Shown here one piece after another: positions 53,748-54,833 of a stretch of DNA of 64,000 bases; position 1 is the stretch's first letter; each line of letters begins with the position of its first letter. Below the pieces are notes generated by a model. It was not told where the DNA came from and made no database searches. It saw nothing but the letters and a program-made list of their open reading frames with translations. The stretch is from Escherichia phage ECML-363, in the sequence record OL631483.1, one strand, 5' to 3'. The translations under genes were made by a program, and so were the position numbers.

Positions 53748-54833
53748 ATGGCAGTAGCAGGACCGTGGGTAGGATCGTCTGCAGTAGTTAATACAGGACA
53801 AAATTGGATGGGCGGCGCGGCCCAACGATTAAGAATGGGCATTCCGTTCTGGATGAGTAATATGATAGGTCGATCTGTTGAAGTAATTCACACGCTTGGA
53901 GCAGACCATAACTTCAATGGTCAATGGTTCCGAGATAGATGTTTTGAGGCAGGTAGTGCACCTATAGTGTTTAATATCACTGGAGATTTAGTATCATATT
54001 CTAGAGACGTTCCTTTATTCTTCATGTACGGAGATACACCGAATGAATATGTTCAATTGAATATACACGGCGTAACGATGTATGGTCGCGGCGGGTATGG
54101 TTGGGCTGCTGGGGCGATTGGAGCGGCTGGCGGGGGGGTATGTATCCCAAATGATATAGGGGGGCGCCCCCGCATTCATAATGGGGGGGCTATTGCTGAA
54201 GGCGGCGGCGGGGGGGGGGGGGATTTGCCAGCCAATAAAATGGCGGGGGAAGATGGTGTGGGTATTGCACCTATAGTGTTTAATATCACTTGATATTTAG
54301 TATCATATTCTAGAGGCTTTCCTTTATTCTTCATGTTCGGAGATGCACCGAATGAATATGTTCAATTGAATATACACGGCGTAACGATGTATGGTCGCGG
54401 CGGGAATGGTTGGGCTGCTGGAGCGATTGGAGCGTCTGACGGTGGTGTATGTATCCAAAATGATATAGGTGGACGCCTACGAATTAATAATGGGGGAGCT
54501 ATTGCTGGAGGCGGCGGCGGTGGCGGTGGATATTCGCAAGCCAATAACTGGGCAGGAAAATATGTATGTGGAGGCGGCGGTGGTCGTCCATTTGGTTTAG
54601 GCGGAAATAATGGTGCTCGATGGCCTGGTGGAAATGCTAGCTTAACAGCACCTGGTGCTGGTGGTAATACTGGCCAATATTGGGCTGGCGGTGGAGGTGA
54701 AGTTGGTCAACCAGGTCAATATGCTAATCCAGGTAATGGTTATTCAACACCTCCGACAAATCCTGGTGCTGCTGTAGCAGGATCGGCTCCAACATGGCAA
54801 AACGTTGGAGCCGTATACGGTTCAAGAGTATAA
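53748..54833 (+). pseudogene. 38: gp38 tail-fibre adhesin (T2-type, glycine-rich) interrupted by in-frame TGA within an imperfect tandem duplication
   Basis: Two same-frame ORFs (to 54293, and 54333-54833) separated by TGA at 54291-54293; removing one ~309-bp copy restores a ~258-aa ORF with GGGGGGGG glycine motifs. Confidence 0.7.
53958..54572 (+). repeat. Imperfect direct tandem duplication (~309 bp x 2) inside gene 38
   Basis: Copy 1 53958-54266, copy 2 54267-~54572; shared gcacctatagtgtttaatatcact...ttcaattgaatatacacggcgtaacgatgtatggtcgcggcggg; copy 1 3' half has G runs (13 G at 54210-54222). Confidence 0.85.

Follow-up and report, generated by a model that had tools for sequence, protein, structure and literature searches.

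Does the 309-bp repeat that interrupts gene 38 of Escherichia phage ECML-363 exist in the phage, or only in its sequence record (OL631483.1)? We address this question in a 64,000-nucleotide stretch of that record, referred to here as the window, which is a Tequatrovirus (T4-like) segment that is 95-98% identical to, and collinear with, phages KMB42, CAM-21, and Ec_O157kw. Gene 38 encodes gp38, the receptor-binding tip that sets host range in T2-type phages, and in the window it is split by an in-frame TGA into two open reading frames (ORFs). A sequence-only reading of the locus had placed two possibilities side by side: a sequencing or assembly artefact, or a revertible duplication that acts as a host-range switch. 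The first is strongly supported by the analysis presented here, and the second is unsupported. Judged by its error signature and its relatives, the extra 309 bp is very probably an artefact of sequencing or assembly and not part of the phage genome.

The repeat far exceeds what chance would produce, and the question is whether it is present in phage DNA. A repeat search matched 53952-54251 to 54261-54560 with 88% identity, and Tandem Repeats Finder (TRF) reported a repeat at 53952-54547 with a period of 309, 1.9 copies, 89% matches, and 0% indels. The two copies are thus offset by exactly 309 bp and align without gaps or indels at 88-89% identity. These results bear out the earlier description of a direct repeat of 103 codons in frame; its start, however, lies ~6 nt before the position first given, at gene position 205 (53952 for copy 1, 54261 for copy 2). 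The features of the gene, all on the plus strand, are as follows.

53748-54833, plus strand: gene 38, whole.
53748..54293, plus strand: gene 38 5' ORF, 181 aa, stopping at the TGA (from the ORF list and Pfam).
53952..54260, plus strand: copy 1, gene positions 205-513, with no mismatch to reference alleles before 54096.
54037..54095, plus strand: identical core of 59 bp, paired with 54346-54404.
54096..54260, plus strand: degraded tail of copy 1, with 34 substitutions, 0 indels, and all three G runs.
54256..54265, plus strand: junction, where the end of copy 1 (gene position 513-515) meets the start of copy 2 (205-207).
54261..54569, plus strand: copy 2, gene positions 205-513, running into the true 3' end of the gene.
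54265..54345, plus strand: degraded head of copy 2, with 7 substitutions (54265, 54291, 54294, 54316, 54318, 54337, and 54345), all nonsynonymous.
54291..54293, plus strand: TGA, produced by G>T at 54291 (GGA to TGA), with a second G>T at 54294.
54333..54833, plus strand: gene 38 3' ORF, 166 aa (from the ORF list; GP38 profile positions 50-218).

The exact point of the junction is ambiguous because GG is common to both tracks. The two G-to-T changes at the stop codon had been recognized from the letters and are confirmed at 54291, where the change creates the TGA, and at 54294. In the 181-aa ORF, Pfam identifies Gp38_N at residues 1-40 and GP38 at residues 45-166, the latter corresponding to profile positions 1-123 of 218. 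No Shine-Dalgarno sequence, and no ribosome-binding site, is found upstream of the 3' ORF (54333..54833). As written, the gene lacks the arrangement that defines a T2-type gp38, in which both domains lie in one ORF between g37 and t. Gene 38 is the only one of the 63 long ORFs common to the window and KMB42 that is split. This comparison gave one further partial hit, probably a shadow ORF, on the strand opposite the annotated minus-strand alc/rnlA genes.

A single-copy gene was reconstructed by taking copy 1 below gene position 300 and copy 2 from position 300 on, and the differences between the copies were polarised against the gp38 genes of three close relatives, each 777 bp (258 aa). The reconstructed 777-bp gene is 1 base from that of KMB42, 2 bases from that of Ec_O157kw, and 100% identical to that of phage MLF4. 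Its product matches PF05268 (GP38) with 243 bits over the entire profile (1-218/218) and PF21721 (Gp38_N) with 74 bits, and is near-identical to the gp38 part of PDB entry 9v85 (E=2.6e-138); the solved relatives are 9v85 and 6f45. Most likely, the true gene is a single-copy, 777-bp gene that encodes an intact 258-aa T2-type gp38.

Measured against the reconstructed gene, all deviations flank the junction and none are indels. Copy 1 is perfect to 54095 and then carries 34 substitutions in 165 bp that become denser toward the junction; successive 33-bp bins hold 0, 0, 0, 0, 2, 5, 7, 5, and 10 deviations, with 5 more in the 6 bp that remain (Spearman p=2e-11). Copy 2 has 7 substitutions in its first 85 bp, one of which is the TGA, and then 0 over 488 bp, and its sequence from 54346 on matches KMB42, bov9_1, and related alleles at 100%. 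Collapse of the copies yields the wild-type gene only inside the 59-bp core (54037-54095 / 54346-54404). The suggestion that deletion of either copy would restore the adhesin is wrong, since copy 1 would keep 34 substitutions and copy 2 would keep the TGA.

The substitutions in the degraded tail of copy 1 look like instrument error caused by phasing lag rather than evolution, to judge from their spectrum and context. Natural divergence between the window and KMB42 amounts to 1,610 substitutions, with a transition:transversion ratio of 1155:455 and 53 T>G changes (3.3%). In the degraded tail this ratio is 11:23 (0.48, compared to 2.5 in the background; p=3e-6), and T>G makes up 11/34 changes compared to 53/1610 natural ones (p=2e-8), alongside 8 A>G and 5 A>C. 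By site, 37% of A, 33% of T, 12% of C, and 5% of G positions were substituted. In 23/34 cases (68%) the substituted base repeats the true base just before it, and in 29/34 (85%) it repeats the base at -1 or -2. By comparison, natural substitutions of the window match the preceding base in 20.7% of cases. The eight most divergent natural 170-bp segments (19-49 substitutions each), whose substitution density is comparable to or somewhat below that of the degraded tail, do so in 11-29%. Under a permutation null that preserves the G bias, 12.8 preceding-base matches are expected and 0/20,000 permutations reached 23. Consistent with a lag, A/T sites had become G in 14/23 cases after a G and in 5/58 after any other base (p=2.6e-6); with the following base in place of the preceding one, the effect was weak (p=0.054). 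Segments at ~39051-39220, 57104-57273, 37554-37723, and 38058-38227, which differ from KMB42 by 39-49 substitutions per 170 bp where the mean is ~4, look like ordinary mosaic patches. About half of their substitutions are transitions, they have no preceding-base bias, and they served only as natural controls.

The G runs fit the same pattern. Their presence in the 3' half of copy 1 had been noticed from the sequence, and runs of at least 7 prove to be unique to this site within 64 kb: they occur only at 54132-54138 (7), 54183-54189 (7), and 54210-54222 (13). No C run of at least 6 occurs in the 64-kb window. The G13 run is the outcome of five substitutions in GGTGGCGGTGGAT (at 54212, 54215, 54218, 54221, and 54222) that leave the length unchanged. 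Such runs would arise because GGT, GGC, and GGA glycine codons were read with a one-base lag, as when GGTGGCGGTGGAT becomes G13. The two windows of 300 bp that are densest in GGC in the entire 64 kb are both in gene 38, with 14 and 13 occurrences where the mean is 1.84, and neither is enriched in GCC.

The second copy is absent from related phages. Matches were found in 574 phage records, and every record inspected spans 309 bp less than the query. None of the 120 listed relatives has a gp38 of ~361 aa (they range from 194 to 303 aa). The junction and G-run strings are absent from IMG/VR, metagenome contigs, and GTDB genome contigs, and no exact match on record was found for the protein of either gene 38 ORF or for gp37. 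The window itself has matches of 97-98% at best in the phage collection, and it was found neither among the E. coli genomes nor among the plasmids. The best phage match to the degraded tail is 85% over 149 bp, to the same alleles that copy 2 matches at 100%. Compared at the 7,579 positions for which three or more references were available, the window differs privately at 35, and 29 of these are inside 54090-54350; of the 6 outside, 5 are transitions.

An exact probe with the holin protein identified two close independent contigs, Logan SRR7688338_218 and NCBI AAFTSH010000031.1, and each encodes one intact 258-aa gp38. Outside the degraded zone, SRR7688338_218 has 0 mismatches to window positions 53337-58811 (5.4 kb) and AAFTSH010000031.1 has 0 mismatches to 53337-55811, where its alignment ends. 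From 46083 to the alignment ends, the two contigs have only five mismatches beyond the degraded zone, all within 48073-53336. The Poisson tail for ~41 local substitutions, given 0 in the 5.4-kb flank, is ~1e-68. AAFTSH010000031.1 is a 12-kb T4-like contig with an intact tail-fibre locus in NCBI assembly GCA_006613525.1. The accession style of this assembly suggests a bacterial whole-genome shotgun project, and the contig is presumably phage DNA that was co-sequenced with a host culture. Logan contigs that encode a protein 100% identical to the reconstructed gp38 proved to be from different isolates: one is 97-98% identical to the window, and another is 99% identical downstream of the junction and 95% upstream, degraded tail included.

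Two further contigs, L019 (ENA ERZ27264908 k141_32335, 89.9 kb) and L022 (Logan SRR22112607_4938), have a cleanly disrupted gene 38 (locus ~9250-9968). They derive from phage that are 98.5-99.9% identical to the window, depending on the segment. Their gene 38 has a 2-bp insertion (TC) after gene position 126 that shifts the frame near codon 43, and it has also lost 60 bp in frame, with the 20 residues they encode, between two GGAGGCGGCGG direct repeats. No substitution noise surrounds these lesions, and further similar places were reported. These contigs appear to record a genuine genotype in which gp38 is defective or variant, a surprising state for an essential adhesin.

The junction also coincides with the ends of a reference record. 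The MLF4 record, MH992121.1 / NC_055780.1 (RefSeq), is labelled "UNVERIFIED ... partial genome" and is linearised inside gene 38: the first base of MH992121.1 is the complement of gene position 514 and the last is the complement of 515. Both of its gene 38 pieces are 100% identical to the reconstructed gene. The junction in the window (gene 513-515) falls 1-2 nt from this linearisation point between positions 514 and 515, a point that 47/51 records span in one piece. T4-type genomes are circularly permuted and have no fixed ends, and the MLF4 break point is therefore arbitrary. A coincidence within 2 nt has a probability of ~3e-5 genome-wide and ~0.6% when conditioned on gene 38. The MLF4 record may have been used as a guide in assembly; as a reference, it introduces an artificial break into a host-range gene. 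In the MLF4 record itself, the adhesin is annotated only as a 5'-partial coding sequence, with the final 263 nt of the gene left without annotation at the opposite end of the record.

A mechanism that would account for these features is an overlap that was never collapsed. One sequence end would have entered gene 38 rightward and terminated at gene position ~514; the final ~165 bases of this end would be the untrimmed, low-quality 3' tail of a plus-strand read from a sequencing-by-synthesis platform. As phasing lag grew in the GGC/GGT-rich glycine codons, the previous base would have been reported increasingly, converting GGT and GGA to GGG and then to G runs. The other end would have begun at gene position ~205 with ~85 poorly supported terminal bases, one of them giving the TGA. 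During closure or rotation of the circularly permuted genome, these ragged ends may then have been placed end to end rather than merged, and the 309-bp overlap could have stayed unmerged because both noisy ends are only ~88% identical. In the simplest model, the end at gene position 514 would be joined to a start that reaches ~310 nt to the left of gene position 515. Three marks of a false duplication are found here: it is absent from independent assemblies, the changes at the join are of the read-error type, and the join lies at a reference end. In T6, g38 amber mutants produce morphologically normal virions that do not adsorb or form plaques, and each glycine-rich motif (GRM) or hypervariable segment (HVS) of gp38 that was deleted proved essential (Trojet et al. 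2011, PMC3157838). Because T6 gp38 nonsense mutants form no plaques, a clonal isolate with this TGA could not be propagated.

Several observations weigh against this interpretation. The artefact is deduced from the letters of the record and its relatives alone. The 309-bp period is in frame, for which the chance is 1 in 3, and the seven errors in the head of copy 2 have no clear strand-specific signature. Standard read lengths are not compatible with simple geometries such as one mis-merged read pair; by reasoning only, we rejected a single mis-merged or concatenated pair, which needs a read of at least 309 nt that no standard run provides. The GGAGGCGGCGG motif at the junction is also the deletion endpoint in the L019 and L022 contigs, and the coincidence with the MLF4 ends could be partly a shared hot spot. 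Finally, the clean and apparently real lesions in these two contigs indicate that disruption of gp38 is possible in sequenced populations.

Among the alternatives to an uncollapsed overlap, the one that survives best, although we consider it improbable, is a real and clean in-frame 309-bp duplication, possibly in a subpopulation, that is overlaid with read errors and specifies a 361-aa gp38. A repeat that is exactly in frame and free of indels is what such an event would leave, 309 bp of repeated sequence is hard for short reads to resolve, and duplication in T-even adhesin genes is a known host-range route (Tetart et al. 1996, J Mol Biol 258:726, gp37). However, a real copy would have normal two-strand depth and a clean consensus, like the flank with its 0 private differences in 5.4 kb, and minus-strand reads would correct the errors because those triggered by GGC affect one read direction. 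The worst sequence lies exactly at the junction, and thus nothing clean backs the join, which coincides with the end of a reference record. A protein of this length is missing from the listed relatives, and an insertion of 103 residues in the specificity domain is unlikely to be tolerated when the GRM and HVS segments of T6 are each essential. The related proposal of a genuine but unstable 103-codon in-frame duplication, present in at least part of the population with read-tail noise on top, strikes us as slightly less probable again. If true, the receptor-binding tip would have a structural variant able to revert to wild type by unequal crossover in the shared core.

It is more doubtful still, and already nearly refuted, that the sequence is correct as it stands, that is, that the duplication is real and its mutated copies silence the adhesin, either as a pseudogene or as a revertible on/off switch. 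The 59-bp identical core would permit precise reversion, and genotypes with a disrupted gene 38 do occur in related public contigs. Against this, ~41 substitutions would be needed in 250 bp when there are 0 in the 5.4-kb flank, their spectrum is unlike natural divergence and fits instrument error, a gp38 nonsense mutant forms no plaques, and the real lesions in L019 and L022 are clean and free of noise. Nor is there a sign of selection. All 7 changes in the head of copy 2 are nonsynonymous. In the tail of copy 1, taken singly, 15 substitutions are synonymous and 19 nonsynonymous, and the residue is changed in 16/29 altered codons. Purifying selection on copy 1 was entertained, since 15/34 synonymous changes exceed a uniform model (p=0.017), and was rejected: the excess arises because GGT and GGA become GGG in glycine codons. 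The observed fraction lies between the 28% (p=0.055) and 59% (p=0.084) of two preceding-base error models and is not significantly different from either.

The least credible alternative, to which we assign almost no weight, is a targeted process, either mutagenesis by a diversity-generating retroelement (DGR) or import of a divergent gp38 segment by recombination. One invariant and one heavily substituted copy superficially resemble a template/variable repeat pair. DGR mutagenesis is adenine-specific, whereas T sites in the tail were substituted as often as A sites (33% vs 37%). A reverse transcriptase is not expected in the window: the annotation of KMB42 over this stretch lists none, all long KMB42 ORFs have counterparts here, and the sole sizeable segment of the window without a KMB42 match is 528 bp with a 175-aa ORF. 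We therefore rejected DGR-like mutagenesis, on its spectrum and the absence of an evident reverse transcriptase, and mosaic import, because no phage record beats the ordinary allele for the degraded tail (85%/149 bp). A homopolymer phase-variation switch was also discarded, since G13 arose by substitution, leaves the frame unchanged, and is found in no relative.

The genes on either side of gene 38 are intact.

50387..53716, plus strand: gene 37, distal long tail fibre subunit, intact (from the ORF list and relatives).
54866..55522, plus strand: gene t, holin, intact, the exact-match probe for independent assemblies.

In related loci, the counterpart of gene 37 carries PF13884 (Peptidase_S74). 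Apart from the repeat in gene 38, the window has a single tandem repeat, at 3999-4574 in a minus-strand gene, with a period of 288, 2 copies, 79% matches, and 2% indels. It presumably represents the Ig-like domains of Hoc, with the KMB42 hoc gene as its counterpart by alignment offset, and it provides a contrast case of an old, genuine in-gene duplication. The 175-aa ORF mentioned above (28019-28546, minus strand) occupies a ~530-bp segment without a megablast match in KMB42. It matches PHROG 3710 (E=3e-54), a family of unknown function, and probably represents a small, variable accessory gene of these phages. A 54-bp stretch at 16059-16112, single-copy in the window, has a 100% match at a second, non-collinear place in KMB42 (32597-32650 of the concatenated stretch), which suggests a short repeated element in the KMB42 genome.

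If the 309 bp is indeed false, the practical outcome is a curation flag and a correction of the record to one gene of 777 bp. Left as it is, a falsely split gene would enter annotation as a pseudogene or a pair of hypothetical proteins, misleading host-range prediction and the screening of phage-therapy candidates. It would also place junk peptides in protein databases and invite a false story of a host-range switch. Three checks that need no reads sufficed for the diagnosis: the match to the preceding base, the error gradient toward the junction, and the position of the junction at the ends of a reference record.

How does the locus compare with known systems? As a T2-type gp38 adhesin (PF05268 + PF21721; 6F45, 9V85), the reconstructed gene is full-length and lies between g37 and t; the gene in the window differs in being broken, in all probability by artefact, into ORFs of 181 and 166 aa. 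Tandem duplications in the adhesin domain of T4 gp37 are reportedly clean, keep the frame open, and leave the phage viable with an expanded host range. The likeness is that of an in-frame tandem duplication within a T-even tail-fibre adhesin gene. By contrast, the gene here is gp38 and contains a stop codon and 41 noisy substitutions, and in T6 gp38 nonsense mutants are plaque-less, so that the clean sequence, open frame, and viable phage of an adaptive duplication are all missing.

The closest match to the substitutions themselves is provided by Illumina sequence-specific errors. In this system, GGC triggers lagging-strand dephasing that produces errors downstream of it in a single read direction; 49-62% of miscalls equal the preceding reference base and ~20% equal the -2 base; and the changes are mainly A/T>G/C, with a preference for T>G and A>C (Nakamura et al. 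2011, PMC3141275). The degraded tail has each of these properties: upstream GGC in a GGC-dense template, a single strand direction with errors rising along the read, a lag match of 68%/85%, and an A/T>G/C bias that favours T>G and A>C, in the form of substitutions without indels. Errors of this kind are normally confined to individual reads, whereas here they reached the consensus. Phasing errors in a consensus would mean that the stretch was backed by essentially a single read.

Two-colour poly-G tails (fastp, PMC6129281) share with the degraded tail a G excess toward the 3' end of the read and the miscalling of T as G. The proposal that they caused the G runs was partly right. The window does not have a solid G tail, as ~79% of the true sequence is retained; C became G at only 1/24 C sites; and conversion is governed by a preceding G. 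Signal loss alone would ignore the preceding base and should convert C to G, and pure two-colour poly-G was accordingly rejected as the main cause. A contribution of signal fade to the G excess is conceivable.

At the level of assembly, the repeat resembles homotype false duplication, in which read errors leave under-collapsed sequence in genome assemblies (Ko et al. 2022, PMC9516828). As in those cases, the copies are adjacent and roughly read-sized, one differs only by changes that resemble read errors, the duplication is missing from independent assemblies, and a false gene structure results. The homotype cases were found in vertebrate assemblies and diagnosed by read depth and k-mers, whereas the diagnosis here comes from an error signature, near-identical contigs, and coincidence with a reference end.

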